This document shows, piece by piece, positions 53,466 through 61,230 of a stretch of 64,000 nucleotides of DNA; position 1 is the first letter of the stretch, and every line of letters begins with the position of its first letter. Under the pieces are notes generated by a model that searched no databases, was not told the origin of the DNA, and saw only the letters and a program-made list of their open reading frames with translations. Source of the stretch: Thermoplasmata archaeon (GTDB lineage: Archaea; Thermoplasmatota; Thermoplasmata; Lutacidiplasmatales; UBA184); assembly GCA_035502035.1 (NCBI GenBank), contig DATJUZ010000028.1:1639-65638 (forward strand), read 5' to 3'. The position numbers and the translations under genes were made by a program.

Positions 53466-53620
53466 TGCTGCCCACTCCGGTGTTCGGGAGCAGGCGTCAT
53501 TGGCCCGTGGGGCGGTTCGCCGGCAGGGCCGGCCGGCGGACGCCTCCGCCTGCCCGGTGGGGAGAGGGCGAGGTACTTAGCCATGCCGACGGGAGCGCAG
53601 CGGGGACCCCTACGACCGAC

Positions 53621-53631
53621 GGCCCCTCGGG
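53621..53631 (+). repeat. Left copy of the 11-bp direct repeat GGCCCCTCGGG bracketing the low-GC island
   Basis: Exact match to 59486-59496. Both copies are followed by a T-rich/TATA-like sequence (cTTTGGGATTTATG versus TTTCTTTAAATA). Confidence 0.35.
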
Positions 53632-53700
53632 CTTTGGGATTTATGTCCTGCAACAGGAACCTTGGGAAAAAATTCAACTTTGCGGGATTTTTTGAGTCTC

Positions 53701-53960
53701 GCCGGTCCCGACATCGGTCGCGCATTAGCGCCCGGAGAAGGGCGTAAGGTTCCAGGCAGCGAAACTGACTGCTTCGTCTCGAGTAATCAGCCGGATGGGA
53801 GAGCGTGCCCCTGCTCTGTAACCGAAGGGGCTTCACCCCTGGGATTGACAACCTTCCCGCCGACGCAGACGAAACCGGTTGCCGCCAATGGAGTCACCCC
53901 CGGGCTAGCCCCGAACTAGTGGGCAGACCGTAGCACCTGGCCGTCGAGCTGCTGGCCGGC
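53701..53960. ncRNA. Candidate structured non-coding region of unknown class (strand unresolved)
   Basis: About 260 nt with no convincing ORF and about 63% GC, higher than its island neighbours. Local hairpins: GCGCCC-GGAGAA-GGGCGT (53728-45), AGAGC-GTGCCCCT-GCTCT (53800-17), AGGGG-CTTCA-CCCCT (53826-40), GCTAG-CCCCGAA-CTAGT (53904-20). The ends are complementary: GCCGG (53701-05) and CCGGC (53956-60). The region is preceded by A/T boxes GAAAAAATTCAAC and GATTTTTTGAG. Confidence 0.2.
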
Positions 53961-53970
53961 TGCTCATGGC

Positions 53971-54327
53971 CTACAAACCGAATCTCTTTCGTAAGAACCC
54001 GAATGCCGTCTTCCCCTTCGAGGATCCAAAGCTAATCTGGGGAGCCGGACTTGAGGGGACCTTTGTTCTGTCCCTCGTTGTCAGTGCGGCCCCGAGCTGT
54101 GAGTCGGTCCATAGGACCAGAACGTCGTACTGCACGGGCGTTCCGGGCTTTGCGATCGCGACGCCTTGTGGGTCGACAACAAGCGTGGCGGATCCTGACT
54201 CGGTTCGGAAGACCCAGATTTGGGGGAGGTACCCTCTTATGATTCCGCCGAAGATTCCCTTTAGGTGAGGCTGTAGCTCCTGCGATATCTGCGGGCACAG
54301 TGCACCCAAGAGCTCGACATCGGTCAT
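53971..54327 (-). CDS. Small protein (118 aa), possibly an SCP2-like fold, partner of the upstream ATPase
   Basis: ATGA overlap with the ATPase stop. TLVVDPQGVAIAKPGTPVQYDVLVLWTDSQLGAALT ... KGKTAFGFLRKRF loosely resembles the SCP2 layout. Confidence 0.55.
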   Translation of the reverse strand: MTDVELLGALCPQISQELQPHLKGIFGGIIRGYLPQIWVFRTESGSATLVVDPQGVAIAKPGTPVQYDVLVLWTDSQLGAALTTRDRTKVPSSPAPQISFGSSKGKTAFGFLRKRFGL

Positions 54328-55496
54328 CGTGAGTCGATTGAGTCCCCTTCAGTGGCTCTCGGAAGAACGAGCCGCTCGATTAAGCGTCTGCGGATTACAT
54401 GATAGTAGGCGATGACCGGGGCCTTCCGTAGCTCGTAGTGCCCATAGGAGACCTTCAGGAGTATACCCTGCGCGACAAGTCTGCCTATGTACGGCGCTTG
54501 GATTGCCAGTTCTTCGATGATCTCAGAGCTACGGAGGTGACCCTTACCCGAGCTCGCAATCTTCGCGAAGGCCAGGATGTCGTTATCAGAGGCTCTCGCA
54601 CACTCTCGATTGAGCCAGCCCGCAGCGCTCTCAAGGGCAGTCCCTAGACGGGTGTTCACCGCCTCAGCGTCAAGGATGGCGTTTTCGCGATAGGTCGCTC
54701 TAGCGATGCAGTGGACGAGGTACGGGTAACCATGTGACAGGCGAAAAACAGTCTCAACTCCACTGTCACTCCACGTGGACCTCGAGTCGACTCTTCGTAG
54801 GGGATTGTCTAGGGCGTCTCTCGTCTCCGCGGCAGAGAGCTCGCCGACGTCGAAGCTAGAGTCGGTAAACACTCTGGCGACCGGCGAAGAGTCATGAGTC
54901 GCGAGTCGGTCTGAGAACTCGACCCCCCCGGTTACGACAAGGAAGACCGGCGTCGGCGAGTTGGCCTCCGCAATCGTCTTCAAGGCGCCGAGGCCGGATC
55001 GATCGAGCTGCTCTGCGTCGTCAATGGACACCATAAGCAGGGGAATCCCATCCAGGGAGTCCATACAGTCACGCCAGATCGAGATTGCTTGACTGGCCGG
55101 CCCCGCCTCTCGTGGCGAGATTGTAACGCCCGTACCGGCGACGTTTACGCCGCTGAACCGACGAAGGAAGGCCTTGAACTTCTCGCCAACGGTCGCACGG
55201 GTAGAAAGCTGCCGAGCGACCTCTGCGACGATAGTCCTGTACAATCGATCCTCGGAGGTTTCGCTCTGTAATGGTATGTCCACGGCGACTGCCTCGGACA
55301 GCCTTGATGTCACTTCGGCCCGGACCTTCCGCAGGATCGAGGTCTTACCGCTGCCACGGTATCCGTGGAACAGCATGGGGGTGGTACGCGTTAATCGCCT
55401 AGCAGACTCGACGGCCTCCTCCGACTTTGCCAGAATTTCGCGCCGCCCGGCAAAAACAGCTGGGTCCGCCGGCTGGCCCGGCGCGTAAGGGTTCAC
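54324..55496 (-). CDS. AAA+/archaeal-ATPase-type NTPase with a C-terminal winged helix (Arch_ATPase/ORC-like architecture)
   Basis: N-terminal NPYAPGQPADPAVFAGRREIL, Walker A GYRGSGKTS, Walker B LLMVSIDDAEQL, and a C-terminal wHTH-like ILAFAKIASSGKGHLRSSEIIEELAIQAPYIGRLVAQGILLKV. Confidence 0.8.
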   Translation of the reverse strand: MNPYAPGQPADPAVFAGRREILAKSEEAVESARRLTRTTPMLFHGYRGSGKTSILRKVRAEVTSRLSEAVAVDIPLQSETSEDRLYRTIVAEVARQLSTRATVGEKFKAFLRRFSGVNVAGTGVTISPREAGPASQAISIWRDCMDSLDGIPLLMVSIDDAEQLDRSGLGALKTIAEANSPTPVFLVVTGGVEFSDRLATHDSSPVARVFTDSSFDVGELSAAETRDALDNPLRRVDSRSTWSDSGVETVFRLSHGYPYLVHCIARATYRENAILDAEAVNTRLGTALESAAGWLNRECARASDNDILAFAKIASSGKGHLRSSEIIEELAIQAPYIGRLVAQGILLKVSYGHYELRKAPVIAYYHVIRRRLIERLVLPRATEGDSIDSR

Positions 55497-55554
55497 CCTT
55501 GCGGGTAAGTTCCACTTCTGATAAGCGTTCTGACGCGCTTGCCGTGGGACTCCA

Positions 55555-55572
55555 GTTTAATCGAAATTAAAC
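55555..55572. promoter_or_regulatory. Inverted repeat GTTTAAT-CGAA-ATTAAAC in the AT-rich spacer upstream of the ATPase gene
   Basis: Perfect 7-bp arms with a 4-nt spacer, 59-76 nt upstream of the ATPase ATG. It could be a TATA/operator for the ATPase or a terminator for the disrupted ORF. Confidence 0.3.
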
Positions 55573-55576
55573 GATT

Positions 55577-56151
55577 CTATACGGGTCGCTCCCCGTAACC
55601 TCCTGCAAGGCTCGCGATGCGCGACATCGTTCCCGCAGCGTACGACACACCGTCGGTCAAGAACTGCCTCGCTCGGGGAGTCATCTCCTGCCCGGCCGGG
55701 CTCACGGGTATGTCTGAGCCGCCGTAAACTGGCTCGAGAGTCGCAATCGGGAAGAGGGGGCCAGCTTCGAGTGTCTCAAAGTAGGTTCGGACCAGTTCGT
55801 GGCATCCCCCAAAGGGATCGGTATTCTGAAGGCGCGTGAGGTCGGGCCACCACTACTCCCTCCTAGTCCCGACCGCTACACCAGCCTGCCGCATCCTCGA
55901 GTGGATGTCAGAAAGGAGACCCCGGGCCGCCACAACGTCGACCTCGGCAGAGTGCCAGTCGTCAGCATGCAGAGCTGTCTGGAAATATAACCCAGGACCG
56001 CCGCGGTGACGTTGCCGTCGGATACGGTTGTCCCAAGGTCAAACCAGAGACGGCCACCTGGGGTTTCAGTCCAAATTTGGACCATGCCAGTCTCGTTGCC
56101 CAGGTAGGGGCCGCGACCACTGAAGTCGAAATCCCGGCGCGGCGTCCCCAT
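55577..56151 (-). pseudogene. Disrupted ORF: one frameshift plus one in-frame TAG
   Basis: Frame A starts at ATG 56151 (MGTPRRDFDFSGRGPYLGNETGMVQIWTETPGGRLWFDLG...GYIS). Protein-like sequence then continues in another frame (ALHADDWHSAEVDVVAARGLLSDIHSRMRQAGVAVGTRRE) up to TAG 55855-55853. The same frame stays open beyond the TAG (WWPDLTRLQNTDPFGGCHELVRTYFETLEAGPLFP...GYGERPV) to the stop at 55579-55577. Confidence 0.4.
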
Positions 56152-56261
56152 CGACTCGTCCTCTGCTTGGTCGTGGACTGGCAGGCAGCAGTGCTACGGA
56201 CTCATACCACCTAGCCTCATATCCTTGGGATGGCTTAGGAAAAGTAGCTACGCTATGAACC

Positions 56262-57878
56262 ATGCCTGAGTGGGTTTTGATAAGCGGTGCGCCGTATGTG
56301 ACAGTTTCTGCCATTGGCCTAGCACAGGGTAGGCCGCCCAACAATGGCGCGAATTTTGGCCCCGACACCCCTGGGACCGTAACGACCGGAATACAGGAAG
56401 CCCTCAACTTCATAGCCACGACAGGAGGGAGGGTACACTGCATACAAGGAGCGTACCTGGCGTCCGCTACTATCTCGTTCACAGGATCGAACCAACTGCT
56501 TTGGTTTGAGCCGGGGAGCTCCCTTACCTTTGCGAATGGGATATCGGGAGCAGTCCCTGCCTGGTTCGACCCGGAGGGATACTACTCGAAGAGCGACTCC
56601 CGGCTGATTCATATGGGATCCGACCTCGCAGATCCCATTGTTTACTCGCATCAGTGGCTAGTCGGGAACGGGCTCGTGGTAAACTGGGGGAGCAATACGA
56701 CACCAACGCTAAACAATGGGGTTTGCGTGACCGTGCCTGGGCAAGCCTCGGACCCGGCCTACACCGGCCCTGGAGGCTCCGACTACCTGATTGAGGGCTT
56801 GGTCTGCAGTGGCAAGATATTCTGTACCATCCTTGTGATGGCAGAGAACTTCAGCGCCTCCTCGCCAGTGCTGCTGACAGAGCCGCAGCGCACGAGGTTC
56901 ATTCGAGTTCGAAGAGTCTCCGCAACCTACTCCCTCGATGCCAACGCCGCGAAAATGAGCGCCATCCTGCTCCGGTGCAGCTCGGATGTTCTCGTCTCCG
57001 ACTGTTATGTCGACTGCTCCGCTCTCGGCAACGTAGACTACGATACGATCAACGTCACGGGCCACACCGGAGAGCTCGCCCAGGTCGAGGTCCGAAGATC
57101 CTATTTCCGCGGAAACGGCGTCTCGGGCCAGTGTTTGGAAGTTCAAGGCGGAGTAAGCCCCTCAACCGCAACATCGAGCACGGTGGGACTGCACGACGTC
57201 AGGTTTTCCCAGTGTACGTTCGATACTGGTGCCGCCACCGGAGCGCCGGTGGCTGGGCTCTCGGGCGCGTTTATTGACGATAACAACAGCACCACGGCCC
57301 TTGCGCAGCTCTGGAACGTCGAATTCTACCAGTGTCGCTGGATCAACTGCGGGGTCTCGATTCAGAGCACTTCGATAGCTATAACGGTCGGAGCGAGCCC
57401 GTTCACCTACACTAATGGGACTCCCGACCCTCAGGAGGTTACCGTTACGGGGGGGACTGTCTCAGCCATCACAGTTGGCGGTGTGTCGGTCCCCGTTGCA
57501 TCGCCCACGAGACTGTTGGTCAGACCCGGGGTCTCGGTGGTGGTTACCTACTCGTCGAGCCCGACGATGACCTGGAACGCATTTGGCTACCTGCGGTTCA
57601 GCGGGCAGTTGCCCTCAGCCATCGGCACCGCGGGCTCCTTGCAGGCGCGAGGTCCGAACGACAAAGGACCTCTGATGGCGGTCGGTTCTAGTCCCTTTAC
57701 CTACCAGAACGTAGACGGATTCGACGAGGTGGTCGTCGTGGACGGAGGATCGGTTTCGAGCATCTCCTTCAACGGTGCAGCGACCCCTCGAACCGGCGGC
57801 GATTTCAAGCTGGTCGCAGGTGACACCATCACCGTGTCTTACTCATCCGCACCCTCCATCAATGTTCAGGGCAAGTAG
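56262..57878 (+). CDS. Right-handed beta-helix (pectate-lyase-3 / tailspike-like) protein with two C-terminal repeat domains
   Basis: N-terminal GPDTPGTVTTGIQEALNFIATTGGRVHCIQGAY matches the pectate_lyase_3 entry motif. The middle has periodic Cys/Asn/Val-rich coils. No signal peptide. 538 aa. Confidence 0.8.
   Translation: MPEWVLISGAPYVTVSAIGLAQGRPPNNGANFGPDTPGTVTTGIQEALNFIATTGGRVHCIQGAYLASATISFTGSNQLLWFEPGSSLTFANGISGAVPAWFDPEGYYSKSDSRLIHMGSDLADPIVYSHQWLVGNGLVVNWGSNTTPTLNNGVCVTVPGQASDPAYTGPGGSDYLIEGLVCSGKIFCTILVMAENFSASSPVLLTEPQRTRFIRVRRVSATYSLDANAAKMSAILLRCSSDVLVSDCYVDCSALGNVDYDTINVTGHTGELAQVEVRRSYFRGNGVSGQCLEVQGGVSPSTATSSTVGLHDVRFSQCTFDTGAATGAPVAGLSGAFIDDNNSTTALAQLWNVEFYQCRWINCGVSIQSTSIAITVGASPFTYTNGTPDPQEVTVTGGTVSAITVGGVSVPVASPTRLLVRPGVSVVVTYSSSPTMTWNAFGYLRFSGQLPSAIGTAGSLQARGPNDKGPLMAVGSSPFTYQNVDGFDEVVVVDGGSVSSISFNGAATPRTGGDFKLVAGDTITVSYSSAPSINVQGK
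57378..57866 (+). repeat. Protein-level tandem duplication (~64 aa x2) at the C-terminus of the beta-helix protein
   Basis: VGASPFTYTNGTPDPQEVTVTGGTVSAITVGG...VVVTYSSSPTMTW (57378-57575) aligns with VGSSPFTYQNVDGFDEVVVVDGGSVSSISFNG...ITVSYSSAPSINV (57675-57866). Confidence 0.7.
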
Positions 57879-58139
57879 CTCCTGGCCGAGTGGCCAGCAG
57901 CCGAGGCGGCGTGCTCCCAGTCCCCGTTCTGACCAGTCTTGAGATTGGGGTCACGAAGGAGGCTCGCCGAGTGGAAGGGCTGGGTCCGAGTTCCCCCCCC
58001 ACTGATTCAGCAAGCTCTCTTGCGATTGAGGGCGAGTCAAACGAACTCGACGTGACATCATCACTGGGCGAGTGGAGACCCCGTTGTCACCAACAAACCG
58101 ATGAGCCGTCAAGCGCCCAACCCAAGGGCGCGCCCCTCG

Positions 58140-58796
58140 CTACTCTCTTGATATCAAGAACTGGTGTCGTCCGAGGTACGTCAACCTAGTGCAGTGGACC
58201 GCTGAAAAATTGTCCACCGCCCTAGTTACTCCGTCGTCCCAATCGCTCTGAGGCAAGTCGTAGTCGTCCCCTGCAAGGGCCCCCCCTGCCTTTACTTTTG
58301 GCCACCACGCGGAAAGGTCTGCCAGAACGGCATGATATCGGTGGTCTGCATCGAGGTAGACGAAGTCTACTGAACCGTCCGGAAACTCCTTCGCGGCGTC
58401 GACTGACGGATTGCGATGTATCACCACCCGCCCCGCGCGCGTCTCGGCGTGCAGACGCACAGTGGCGCTCTTGTAGGCCTGCTCAATCTTGGCCTGACTA
58501 GTATTCCCGTTACCGCCCCATCGACGTGAGGGATGGCCCGGAACCTGTTTCCACTGATCCACTAGATGAAGGAATCTCGGCTGGACAATCCTAAGTATCC
58601 TCTCAGAAAACTCCCCGGCCCACACTCCAACCTCGACGCCAATCCCTCCTCGTGGGAGGCGCTCGAGGATGGGGTCACGGTACCACAGGGGTCTCCAGTG
58701 TAGCTGCATCCTACCCTGAGACGCGGGGTTGAAAGCCGAGTACCCCTTGCTTGTCAGAGATTTGACCTTGACGCCGACACCCTGCGGTGAAGACAA
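58140..58796 (-). CDS. Class I SAM-dependent methyltransferase (Methyltransf_24-like)
   Basis: Motif I is GVEVGVWAGEFS. VDFVYLDADHRYHAVLADLSAWWPKVKAGGALAGDDY follows. The start could be the internal M30. Confidence 0.8.
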   Translation of the reverse strand: MSSPQGVGVKVKSLTSKGYSAFNPASQGRMQLHWRPLWYRDPILERLPRGGIGVEVGVWAGEFSERILRIVQPRFLHLVDQWKQVPGHPSRRWGGNGNTSQAKIEQAYKSATVRLHAETRAGRVVIHRNPSVDAAKEFPDGSVDFVYLDADHRYHAVLADLSAWWPKVKAGGALAGDDYDLPQSDWDDGVTRAVDNFSAVHCTRLTYLGRHQFLISRE

Positions 58797-59040
58797 CTAC
58801 CTCGGTTGATAGGTGTCCATCGGGGTGACCGACACGGACTCGTAGCTTGCGGCCCAGCGTGACTGTCCGCGGCCCCGCCTTACATCTCGCCTAGCCCGCC
58901 ATTGGTCGACGCCTGAGGGAAGATAGTAGTAGGTCGCAGTCGGGCGGCGCCTTCCGCAGCTGGCCAGAAGAGGAGGCGTTAACGCGCAGCCATGACGATT
59001 TAACCGTGCTCGAGTGCCCGCGCGAGGGAGAAGCATAGAG

Positions 59041-59505
59041 ATGACAGCGCACCCCATCAAGAGAGGCTCGAGAAGGGTGGTGGTGCGGCCCATGAGGGTG
59101 GAGGATATTTCAGAGGTCTATCACCTCGGCGAGCGCATCTACAACGTGGGCGAAGCACCGCTCCTTTATCGCACCTGGGACCCCTATGAGGTTGCGGCCC
59201 AGTTCGCTGCAGAGACCGAACTCTCAATCGTTGCGACCGTTTCTGGGAGATTGGTGGGTTTCTGCCTCTCTACAACAATCGAGAAGCCGGGAAAGCCGTG
59301 GCGCTACGGCTACCTCATCTGGCTCGGTGTAGACCCCAGCTACCGCCTCAGGCATGTGGGCCGCAAACTCGCTCAGCGAACCCTCCGCCTCATGAAGCAA
59401 CGAAGGGCTCAGTCGATCCTCGTTGACACACCCGAGGACAACAGGGGCGCGATCAACTTCTTCGAGCGGCAGGGGTATCGTCGCCGGCCCCTCGGGTTTC
59501 TTTAA
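59041..59505 (+). CDS. GNAT family N-acetyltransferase
   Basis: ATG 59041 (MTAHPIK...). Supporting sequences are LGVDPSYRLRHVGRKLAQRTL and NRGAINFFERQGY. About 50% GC. Confidence 0.8.
   Translation: MTAHPIKRGSRRVVVRPMRVEDISEVYHLGERIYNVGEAPLLYRTWDPYEVAAQFAAETELSIVATVSGRLVGFCLSTTIEKPGKPWRYGYLIWLGVDPSYRLRHVGRKLAQRTLRLMKQRRAQSILVDTPEDNRGAINFFERQGYRRRPLGFL
59486..59496 (+). repeat. Right copy of the direct repeat GGCCCCTCGGG
   Basis: Identical to 53621-53631. It lies in the last codons of the GNAT gene, immediately before the thermosome TATA box. Confidence 0.35.
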
Positions 59506-59562: not shown

Positions 59563-61230
59563 ATGCTGACAGGACAGACCCCGATCTTGGTGCTGAAGGA
59601 AGGAACGAAGCGCGAGAAGGGCCGCGGCGCCCTCTCGAACAACATCCAGGCGGCGAAGGCGATCGCGGACTCGGTCCGCTCGACGCTGGGGCCGCGCGGG
59701 CTCGACAAGATGCTGGTCGACTCGATGGGCGACGTCGTCGTGACCAACGACGGCGTGACGATCCTCAAGGAGATGGACGTCGAGCACCCGGCCGCGAAGA
59801 TGCTGGTCGAGGTCGCGAAGACCCAGGACCAGGAGGCCGGGGACGGCACGACGACCGCCGTCATCCTCGCCGGCGAGCTGCTCAAGCGCGCCGAGGAGCT
59901 CATCGAGCAGAACATCCACCCGACGATCATCTCGCAGGGCTACCGCCTCGCGGCGACCAAGTCGCTCGAGCTCCTCCAGCAGGACAGCCACCCGGTCGCG
60001 ATCGCCGACCACGACACCCTCCAGCGCATCGCCGTGACGTCGATGAGCTCGAAGTCGGTCTCGTTCAACCGGGAGATGCTCGGTGAGATCGCCGTGAAGG
60101 CGGTCACCGCGGTCGCCGAGAAGAAGGGGAGCGCCTACAACGTCGACCTCGACAACATCCAGCTGATCAAGAAGCAGGGCGGTTCGATGGCCGACACCCA
60201 ACTGATCGAAGGCGTCATCGTCGACAAGGAGAAGGTCCACTCCGGGATGCCGTCGCGCGTCGAGAACCCGAAGATCGCGCTCCTGGACGCCGCGCTCGAG
60301 ATCAAGAAGACGGAGATCGACGCGAAGATCGAGATCAACGACCCGAACCAGCTGAACGCCTTCCTCCAGGAGGAGGAGAACATGCTGCGGCGGATGGTCG
60401 ACCAGGTGAAGAAGTCCGGCGCGAACGTCGTCCTCTGCCAGAAGGGGATCGACGACCTCGCCCAGCATTTCCTCGCGAAGGAAGGGATCTACGCGGTCCG
60501 GCGCGTCAAGAAGTCGGACATGGAGAAGCTCGCGAAGGCGACGGGCGCGAACGTCGTCTCGAAGGTGAGCGAGCTCACCCCCGAGGACGTCGGCACGGCC
60601 GGCGCCGTCGAGGAGCGGAAGATCGGCGAGGACGCCCTCACGTTCGTGACGGGCGCGAAGAAGGCCCGCGCGGTGTCGATCCTGATCCGCGGCGGGACCG
60701 AGCACGTCATCGACGAGATCGAGCGGTCGCTGGACGACGCGCTCAACGTGGTGGCGGTCGCGGTCGAGGACGGCCGGTACGTCTTCGGCGGCGGCGCGAC
60801 GGCGGTGGAGCTCGCGATGCGGCTCCGGGACGAGGCGGCGAAGGTCGGCGGGCGCGAGCAGATCGCGTTCGAGAGCTTCGCGGACGCGCTCGAGACCGTG
60901 CCGCGGACCCTCGCGGAGAACGCCGGGCTCGACCCGATCGACATCCTGATCGAGCTGCGGAAGGCGCACAAGGCCGGCCAGAAGATGGCGGGCGTGAACG
61001 TGCACTCCGGCAAGGTCGACAACATGCAGACGCTCAACGTCATCGAGCCGATCCGCGTCGGACGGCAGGCGATCGAGAGCGCGACGGACGCGGCCGTCAT
61101 GATCCTCCGGATCGACGACGTGATCGCGTCGAAGTCGTCCCCGCCCCCGTCGGGCGGCCCCGGTGGCGGGCCCGGCGGCGGGATGGGCGGCATGGGCGGG
61201 ATGGGCGGCGGGGACTTCGGCGACGACTAG
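59563..61230 (+). CDS. ths: Thermosome subunit (group II chaperonin)
   Basis: Motifs are [26 protein letters not shown] and [12 protein letters not shown], with the [13 protein letters not shown]-terminal tail. 555 aa. Confidence 0.95.

Follow-up and report, generated by a model that had tools for sequence, protein, structure and literature searches.

The Arch_ATPase proteins PABY2304 of Pyrococcus abyssi (Protein Data Bank (PDB) entry 2qen) and SSO1545 of Sulfolobus solfataricus (2fna) are built from an AAA+ core, a helical lid and a winged helix, and they have no assigned function. The Orc1/Cdc6 proteins likewise combine an AAA+ core with a lid and a C-terminal winged helix, and their lid carries a sensor-2 arginine. 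The conflict-system architectures of nSTAND1 proteins are defined by an effector domain together with sensor repeats (Kaur et al. 2021, PMC8195603). Here we compare with these systems two overlapping genes from a Thermoplasmata archaeon, located on a stretch of 64,000 nucleotides (nt) (GenBank assembly GCA_035502035.1, contig DATJUZ010000028.1, positions 1,639 to 65,638; the whole stretch is called the window in the following). One gene encodes an AAA+ ATPase, the other a small protein with an SCP2 fold, and both lie in a low-GC (guanine plus cytosine) island. A first-pass annotation of the window had read them as an orphan cassette in which a nucleoside triphosphatase (NTPase) sensor and a small effector or adaptor form a conflict module. 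According to our analysis the pair is a one-off juxtaposition and not a conserved two-gene defence cassette.

Occurrence of the gene pair

For the survey of ATPase loci, one genome per species was scanned and 49 loci with relatives of the ATPase were recovered. These loci were translated in six frames, including as much as 5 kb of flanking sequence if the contig was long enough, and were searched, along with five further loci, with a hidden Markov model (HMM) of the small protein. Outside the window, none of about 50 distinct ATPase loci has a homologue of the small gene within 5 kb; the model scores in the window only. Seen from the other side, the flanks of about 35 loci of the small gene were read, over about 1.5 kb or more to either side unless the contig ended earlier, and at none of them is the ATPase the neighbour. 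The first-pass annotation had left it to the neighbourhoods of homologues whether the pair is conserved and enriched in islands. These speak against a sensor and effector module: at the loci surveyed, homologues of the ATPase do not co-occur with the small gene, and almost all genomes of the genus have the family of the small protein, which shows housekeeping synteny.

Other genes do not take the place of the missing partner. All-against-all clustering of the neighbours at 50 ATPase loci gave no recurrent partner, and the sole neighbour type that was seen repeatedly, at 6 loci, was large PKD/beta-propeller surface proteins. The 147 neighbouring open reading frames (ORFs), which were searched with Pfam and PADLOC, are mostly a housekeeping mix, with examples such as tRNA deacylase, seryl-tRNA synthetase, peroxiredoxin, Rpp21, GHMP kinases and MFS transporters. 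Closely spaced co-directional genes downstream of the ATPase differ from locus to locus; judged by eye from the translations, they encode pilin-like, metallo-beta-lactamase-fold, thermosome, PurS-like and membrane proteins. By this reading, these downstream genes do not form a variable effector slot. PADLOC gave no convincing match for either window protein. The best one for the ATPase had an E-value of 1e-3 (AbiEi winged-helix and TnsC models), with the AbiEi winged-helix models matching residues 317-361 weakly.

The locus itself is no assembly artefact, because four independent contigs (ENA ERZ27256501 and ERZ27256617, Logan SRR8881341 and SRR8881005) show zero differences to the window across the island and cross both island junctions. 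Both ORFs are real genes and not chance frames, since both have families of homologues (58 for the ATPase and at least 300 for the small protein) and every family-invariant residue is kept in both window proteins. The layout was found exactly as first annotated: the plus strand reads TCAT at 54324-54327, i.e. ATGA on the coding strand, and the stop of the ATPase gene overlaps the start of the small gene by 4 nt. The label "orphan" is not literally right, as each of the two proteins belongs to a sizeable family.

The junction between the genes looks secondary, like a fusion of two transcription units, because the ATPase has an extra C-terminal tail, the predicted local distance difference test (pLDDT) score of this tail is low, and the small gene has no TATA-like box. 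Most ATPase homologues stop about 3-7 residues past the conserved RRxL of the family alignment. The tail of the window ATPase, which ends in RLVLPRATEGDSIDSR and reaches the ATG of the small gene, is absent from nearly all relatives, and the model predicts disorder for it, with a pLDDT of about 55 for the last block of residues. Stand-alone accessory homologues of the small gene have, by eye, an AAATA or TAATATA box about 30-40 nt upstream of their ATG; by the same reading, no TATA-like box is present 25-40 nt upstream of the small-gene ATG in the window. Since the ATPase frame extends about 15 codons beyond its usual end and into this ATG, the two genes are probably co-transcribed in this genome.

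The ATPase

At E ≤ 1e-53, 58 homologues of the ATPase were found, with identities of 34-57%. A profile search of 1.84 billion representatives gave 35 clusters at E ≤ 1e-30, which we regard as the tight family (about 35 is a count of clusters at 50% identity), and 1,157 clusters at E ≤ 1e-10. Most clusters of this wider group are 375-400 residues long and align end to end. Some distant relatives (about 380 residues) exceed the cut-offs for ATPase_2 and nSTAND1, and in a few of them the protein also contains a Ser/Thr kinase, a receiver or a T2SSE domain as a fusion. Matches to PF01637 are confined, among the relatives, to more distant members and the protein P0054, and a PF20703 annotation is present on close homologues.

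The 49 loci come from Thermoplasmata, Micrarchaeota, Woesearchaeia and Nanoarchaeia, Iainarchaeum, bins labelled Methanosarcinales and three bacterial bins. In the tree, the ATPases fall into a Thermoplasmatota clade, inside which the three "bacterial" bins are nested, and a DPANN clade; the window ATPase forms a long branch inside the Thermoplasmatota clade. Within the genus the gene is rare and was found in no more than 3 of the 36 other genomes: intact in G020 (53% identity), at 43% identity in G035 and split in G025. Some genomes have two paralogues. In 37 of 47 loci the GC content of the ATPase gene is below that of its flanks (median difference -4 points, in the window -14). Thus the ATPase is a solo accessory gene with a patchy distribution in Thermoplasmatota and DPANN archaea and with no fixed partner.

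Full-length distant relatives of about 390 residues (23-25% identity) were found in PLSDB on 27 bacterial plasmids, as solo genes annotated "ATP-binding protein"; the hosts include Clavibacter, Rhodococcus, Gordonia, Massilia and Pandoraea (e. g. NZ_CP123383.1, 35925-37109). The neighbours at the four plasmid loci inspected are unrelated. IMG/VR contained zero relatives of the ATPase, and the structure search of BFVD gave generic AAA+ matches only.

The closest homologue, P0002 (57% identity; locus L008:5001-9907 in GCA_037025365.1, JBAIHP010000003.1), sits 190 bp from a convergent block that encodes a Nuc_deoxyrib_tr-like protein, Cas1 and a family-B DNA polymerase (PolB). Judged from its gene content, the Cas1 and PolB block may be a casposon candidate.

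All sequence motifs that the first-pass annotation had quoted are found in the translation, i. e. the N-terminal lead-in NPYAPGQP...FAGRRE at residues 2-20, the Walker A motif and the Walker B motif. Positions G45, R47, G50, K51, T52 and S53 of Walker A are invariant across 45 family members, and so are D159 and D160 of Walker B across the family alignment. The AlphaFold2 model (mean pLDDT 91.1 with 45 homologues in the alignment) is disordered only in the loop 121-131 and in the last approximately 15 residues, and the NTPase core, the lid and the winged helix cover the protein wholly. The C-terminal winged helix, which had been predicted from the letters, is visible in the model as three helices (residues 304-315, 323-329 and 334-342) followed by a beta-hairpin (346-356). 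This domain is strongly basic, with a median isoelectric point of 10.3 and a net charge of +7 for residues 301-372 across 45 members, in contrast to the acidic lid. Its residues Y336, R339, L340, G352, Y354, P360 and R370 are invariant in the family. The lid sequence SHGYPYLVxC is presumably the GxP motif that is reported for STAND and Arch_ATPase proteins (Leipe et al. 2004).

In Pfam, the ATPase passes the cut-offs of AAA_16 (PF13191; 36.3 bits, cut-off 32.6) and AAA_22 (PF13401; 34 bits, cut-off 27), and it stays just under those of nSTAND1 (24.9 versus 27.1 bits) and nSTAND6 (25.6 versus 27.7 bits). TniB, ORC-CDC6-like and KAP match weakly. In NCBIfam and PHROGs, too, the ATPase has weak matches to generic models only. 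Of the Pfam families named in the first-pass annotation, AAA_16 was borne out (as was AAA_22, which it had not named), whereas ATPase_2 (PF01637, cut-off 33.2 bits) and DUF234 did not match the window ATPase at E ≤ 0.1, and a search of the whole genome with PF01637 did not recover the locus. The Arch_ATPase/ORC-like architecture, on the other hand, is supported by the predicted structure. With Foldseek, the first two PDB matches are 2qen (PABY2304, E 6e-11) and 2fna (SSO1545, E 2e-10); they are followed by archaeal Cdc6/Orc1, eukaryotic ORC4/Cdc6, MuB, RuvB, clamp loaders and the ZAR1 NLR (nucleotide-binding leucine-rich repeat receptor). Among the PDB sequences, the family profile also finds human Cdc6 (E 7e-5). 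We conclude that the catalytic motifs of the ATPase are intact, that its fold is Arch_ATPase/ORC-like and that its basic winged helix is conserved.

Upstream of the ATPase gene, 59-76 nt before its GTG and just 3' of a broken ORF, lies the AT-rich palindrome GTTTAATCGAAATTAAAC. From its sequence and position it could be a candidate promoter or operator, or the terminator hairpin of the broken gene upstream.

The SCP2-fold protein

An alignment-seeded search gave at least 300 members of the small-protein family at E ≤ 1e-3. The protein had no match in Pfam at E ≤ 0.1 (SCP2, SCP2_2 and Alkyl_sulf_C included), nor in NCBIfam, PADLOC or PHROGs, and the sequence-profile search of the PDB with the family alignment returned noise only (ClpS and OspA; E > 0.5). 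The statement of the first-pass annotation that no nuclease or toxin motif is recognisable agrees with the Pfam, PADLOC and NCBIfam scans. Its guess of an SCP2-like fold was right. The AlphaFold2 model has a pLDDT of 90.7 (111 sequences), and in Foldseek against the PDB, SCP2 proteins or domains account for all nine matches at E ≤ 1e-3 and for most of the first thirty. They have template modelling (TM) scores of 0.5-0.65 and a probability of 1.0; UbiJ-SCP2, AF1534 of Archaeoglobus, rabbit SCP2 and the SCP2 domain of alkylsulfatases are among them, with E-values of 1.5e-4 to 8e-4.

The family is confined to Thermoplasmata, is present in 34 of 36 genomes of the genus and has the invariant motif YLPQxWxFxT. 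Its tree consists of two clades, core and accessory, with a support of 96/89 for the split. Core-clade copies are syntenic with genes for acyl-CoA carboxyltransferase, a PYC/OADA-type carboxylase, biotin ligase and RibH/RibB of riboflavin synthesis. Accessory-clade members stand alone in low-GC regions, and the window copy belongs to this clade. The host genome has a second copy (G000, C24:17151-17480), which lies in DNA of 74% GC. Given its SCP2 fold, and given that the core paralogues are syntenic with genes of acyl-CoA carboxylase, we regard the small protein as a predicted carrier that most likely binds a hydrophobic ligand.

At four independent accessory loci (L001:3625-6360, L103:310-3052, L099:201-1916 and L027:5840-8935) a 119-residue SCP2-fold gene is divergent from a conserved block of three genes. 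The products of this trio have about 195, 165 and 280 residues, the last one being atypical-kinase-like (weak Pkinase, APH, RIO1 and ABC1 matches). We looked for the trio in the window and in the host genome; it is absent from both. In bacteria, the SCP2 protein UbiJ associates with UbiB, an ABC1 kinase, and by analogy the SCP2 gene with its atypical-kinase trio recalls this association.

The island and its flanks

The claim that the genes lie on an island of foreign composition holds in three respects, the GC content, the break in homology to relatives and a flanking direct repeat. The GC content of the window is about 73% and falls to 58-61% between roughly 53.6 and 59.5 kb; for the two genes themselves it is 0.57-0.60. 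On the left, the window is homologous in nucleotide sequence to relatives in their orthologous Ehr-type operon, and this homology breaks off at about 53590; on the right, it sets in again at about 59500, in the region upstream of a thermosome gene. A direct repeat of 12 bp, CGGCCCCTCGGG, is found at 53620-53631 and at 59485-59496, where the homology of the relatives stops and resumes. As a rough expectation, the number of such repeats between both boundary stretches by chance is about 0.04. The left copy of the repeat contains position 53630, at which two independent contigs (L095 and L096) break off; this fits a branch point in the population. The features of the locus are collected in Table 1.

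Table 1. Positions of the two genes, their motifs and other features of the island in the window
Feature	Position	Strand	Basis or remark
ATPase gene, 390 residues, stand-alone AAA+/STAND-like with C-terminal winged helix	54324..55496	-	GTG start; ORF, Pfam, AlphaFold2, Foldseek
Small gene, 118 residues, SCP2 fold	53971..54327	-	ATG start; ORF, AlphaFold2, Foldseek, tree
ATGA overlap of ATPase stop and small-gene start	54324..54327	-	Sequence read
Walker A (P-loop) GYRGSGKTS, residues 45-53	55338..55364	-	Translation
Walker B LLMVSIDDAE, residues 153-162	55011..55040	-	Translation
C-terminal basic winged-helix domain, residues 301-372	54381..54596	-	AlphaFold2 secondary structure, charge
C-terminal ATPase tail, about 15-16 residues (…RLVLPRATEGDSIDSR)	54327..54374	-	Alignment, AlphaFold2
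AT-rich 18-nt palindrome GTTTAATCGAAATTAAAC, candidate promoter, operator or terminator	55555..55572	.	Sequence read
Low-GC island, 5.9 kb	53620..59496	.	GC profile, homology break, direct repeat, contig ends, gene content
Broken ORF, two frames with internal stops	55577-56151	-	Directly upstream of the ATPase
Tailspike-like protein, 538 residues	56262-57878	+	C-terminal repeats match PHROG 11182 "tail spike protein", E 1e-7

Apart from the gene pair, the island carries a Methyltransf_24 gene and a GNAT gene (both from Pfam), the broken ORF and the gene for the tailspike-like protein. Neither the pieces of the broken ORF nor the tailspike-like protein matched a Pfam family, and no integrase is present among the island ORFs (ORF list and Pfam). 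Rfam at the gathering threshold and ARAGORN gave nothing over the whole window; thus there is no tRNA integration site.

Several observations concern the surroundings of the island. In the sister genome G020 (L039, G020:C171, 574-5347) the ATPase lies 2.7 kb from the orthologous Ehr operon in opposite orientation, convergent with an Rpp21 gene, and a 661-residue ORF (cyclase/TPR-like by eye) is located between the ATPase and the operon. None of the genes in this interval is shared with the window. The arrangement of Rpp21 and ATPase is retained in two more genomes (L047, L049). To the right of the island, the thermosome copy of the window (59563-61230) and a copy on another contig of the host genome (G000:C8:117664-119328) are 88% identical; the host genome has 4 thermosome matches in all, the relatives 2. 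Contig L095 has the exact sequence of the window throughout the island; from 59837 on, inside the thermosome gene, about 8% of its positions differ, for which mixed strains, chimerism of the assembly or a recent duplication could be responsible. To the left, between the repeat copy and the first gene of the Ehr-type operon, a match to the fluoride riboswitch RF01734 stayed below threshold (53484-53559, minus strand; 21 bits versus a gathering threshold of 34, E 0.003 in a search of 801 nt).

Interpretation

We consider it likely that the locus consists of a mobile solo ATPase with ATP-gated nucleic-acid binding and an SCP2-fold gene that was joined to it secondarily, and that the two have not evolved into a functional module. 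This reading is built on the identities, folds, distribution, non-co-occurrence and island limits described above, to which it adds ATP-gated DNA binding, co-transcription and a role as what the genes would presumably do. The ATPase would be a minimal stand-alone P-loop ATPase of the AAA_16/Arch_ATPase/ORC-STAND type. Binding of a nucleotide could lead to its oligomerisation and to nucleic-acid binding through the winged helix, a switch that may be likened to those of Orc1/Cdc6, of MuB/TnsC and of DNA-binding STAND proteins. The output might be regulation, the exclusion of foreign DNA or the maintenance of a mobile element. The small protein would be a hydrophobic-ligand carrier from the accessory clade, of which the core counterpart serves as a housekeeping gene of the genus. 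The ATPase gene and a captured SCP2-like gene would have been brought together inside the horizontally acquired 5.9-kb island.

Some points weigh against this interpretation. The overlap of 4 nt is a classic signature of translational coupling, and even a pairing unique to one strain can function there. A few ATPase loci adjoin genes of the defence type, namely AbiE, HerA, mads and one type II methyltransferase. That the winged helix binds nucleic acid is deduced only from its charge and fold, and by analogy with STAND and Arch_ATPase proteins such a domain can instead be an intramolecular latch; the window ATPase also has no PF01637 match. Finally, the 53%-identical ATPase of G020 is located less than 3 kb from the orthologous Ehr operon, a position that hints at an older residence at this site and not at a simple recent insertion.

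Four other explanations have to be weighed. An ordinary ATP-dependent transcription regulator, i. e. a small relative of MalT/LAL that combines AAA_16 with a helix-turn-helix domain and acts on the SCP2 gene or on the downstream Ehr operon, seems unlikely to us. The combination of AAA_16 with a basic winged helix would suit it. So would the fusion of relatives to receiver and kinase domains, which suggests signalling, and the common orientation of the ATPase gene, the small gene and the Ehr operon in the window; the G020 homologue, too, is near the orthologous operon. Yet the orientation differs in G020, most relatives with the Ehr operon are without the ATPase, no target neighbour is conserved across the family, and the sensor repeats of MalT/LAL are missing (Pfam, AlphaFold2).

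It is quite unlikely that the ATPase is a replication or maintenance protein (an Orc1/Cdc6-like initiator or a partition protein) from an integrated virus or plasmid that has decayed and left the island as its remnant. The ORC/Cdc6-like fold and the contents of the island point in this direction, above all the tailspike-like protein, the methyltransferase, the broken gene and the flanking direct repeat, as do the one homologue next to a casposon-like Cas1 and PolB block and the distant relatives on bacterial plasmids. However, the genome has its bona fide Orc1/Cdc6 elsewhere (388.9 bits), which argues against a replication initiator, and the window ATPase reaches 14 bits where the Orc1/Cdc6 models require 181. 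The island is without an integrase, most homologous loci are flanked by housekeeping genes and lack integrase and other mobile-element genes, and the viral collections offered no relative in IMG/VR and generic AAA+ matches in BFVD.

We attach a similarly low probability to the idea that the solo ATPase family is a single-protein immunity or exclusion factor, a "minimal STAND" in which the basic winged helix would be sensor and effector in one, for instance if it coated or occluded foreign DNA in an ATP-dependent way, like MuB/TnsC filaments. The SCP2 gene could in this case have been captured in this strain as a co-translated partner, giving rise to a new two-component variant.

Least probable, and very unlikely in our view, is the conflict module itself, in which the ATPase would sense an invader and the effector or adaptor would be the SCP2-fold protein, with membrane lipids as one conceivable target: its case consists of the 4-nt overlap with a small gene lacking a promoter-like box of its own, the island of foreign composition with the adjacent tailspike-like gene, the STAND-like affinity seen in the near-cut-off nSTAND1 and nSTAND6 scores and the patchy, fast-diverging ATPase, and it is countered by the absence of the pairing from all ATPase and small-gene loci read, by the near-core status and housekeeping synteny of the small-protein family, by the lack of a toxin or nuclease motif or PADLOC match in the small protein and by a junction formed by an atypical disordered tail.

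With the preferred reading, in which two genes were joined secondarily, a false lead is removed: the tidy cassette of an NTPase and a small partner is not a new defence system. Two uncharacterised and well-defined families remain, the solo ATPase with a basic winged helix and the Thermoplasmata-wide SCP2-fold protein. Either would be reasonable for biochemical characterisation, and neither will surprise a specialist.

Comparison with known systems

The best whole-length structural matches of the window ATPase are the Arch_ATPase proteins PABY2304 (2qen) and SSO1545 (2fna). Like it, they have an AAA+ core followed by a helical lid and a winged helix, are about 350-390 residues long and have no assigned function. 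The relationship is distant, with a TM score of about 0.5 and 16-19% identity, and the window protein has no match to PF01637 or DUF234. Unlike Arch_ATPase at large, its family is a separate tight clade that is restricted to Thermoplasmatota and DPANN archaea.

With Orc1/Cdc6 (1fnn, 2v1u, 2qby; TIGR02928) the window ATPase has in common the AAA+ core, the lid, the C-terminal winged helix and the N-terminal lead-in F.GRE.E before Walker A (Foldseek E about 1e-8). It differs in the scores for the family models (TIGR02928, 14 versus 181 bits; NF001624, 13 versus 354 bits), in the STAND-type GxP of its lid (SHGYPYLV) and in its patchy distribution as an accessory gene. The likeness to STAND proteins of the nSTAND1 and nSTAND6 type lies in the near-cut-off scores, in the GxP motif of the lid and in the structural resemblance to the ZAR1 NLR. 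In contrast to these, the window ATPase consists of an NTPase core and a winged helix only, with no effector domain, no sensor repeats and no conserved neighbour.

The model of the small protein matches the SCP2 proteins 6h6o (UbiJ-SCP2), 3cnu/3bn8 (AF1534) and 1c44 (rabbit SCP2) over the full length of about 115 residues. It differs from them in having 14-19% identity and no Pfam SCP2 match, and in belonging to a family of its own, which is confined to Thermoplasmata and is marked by the motif YLPQxWxFxT.

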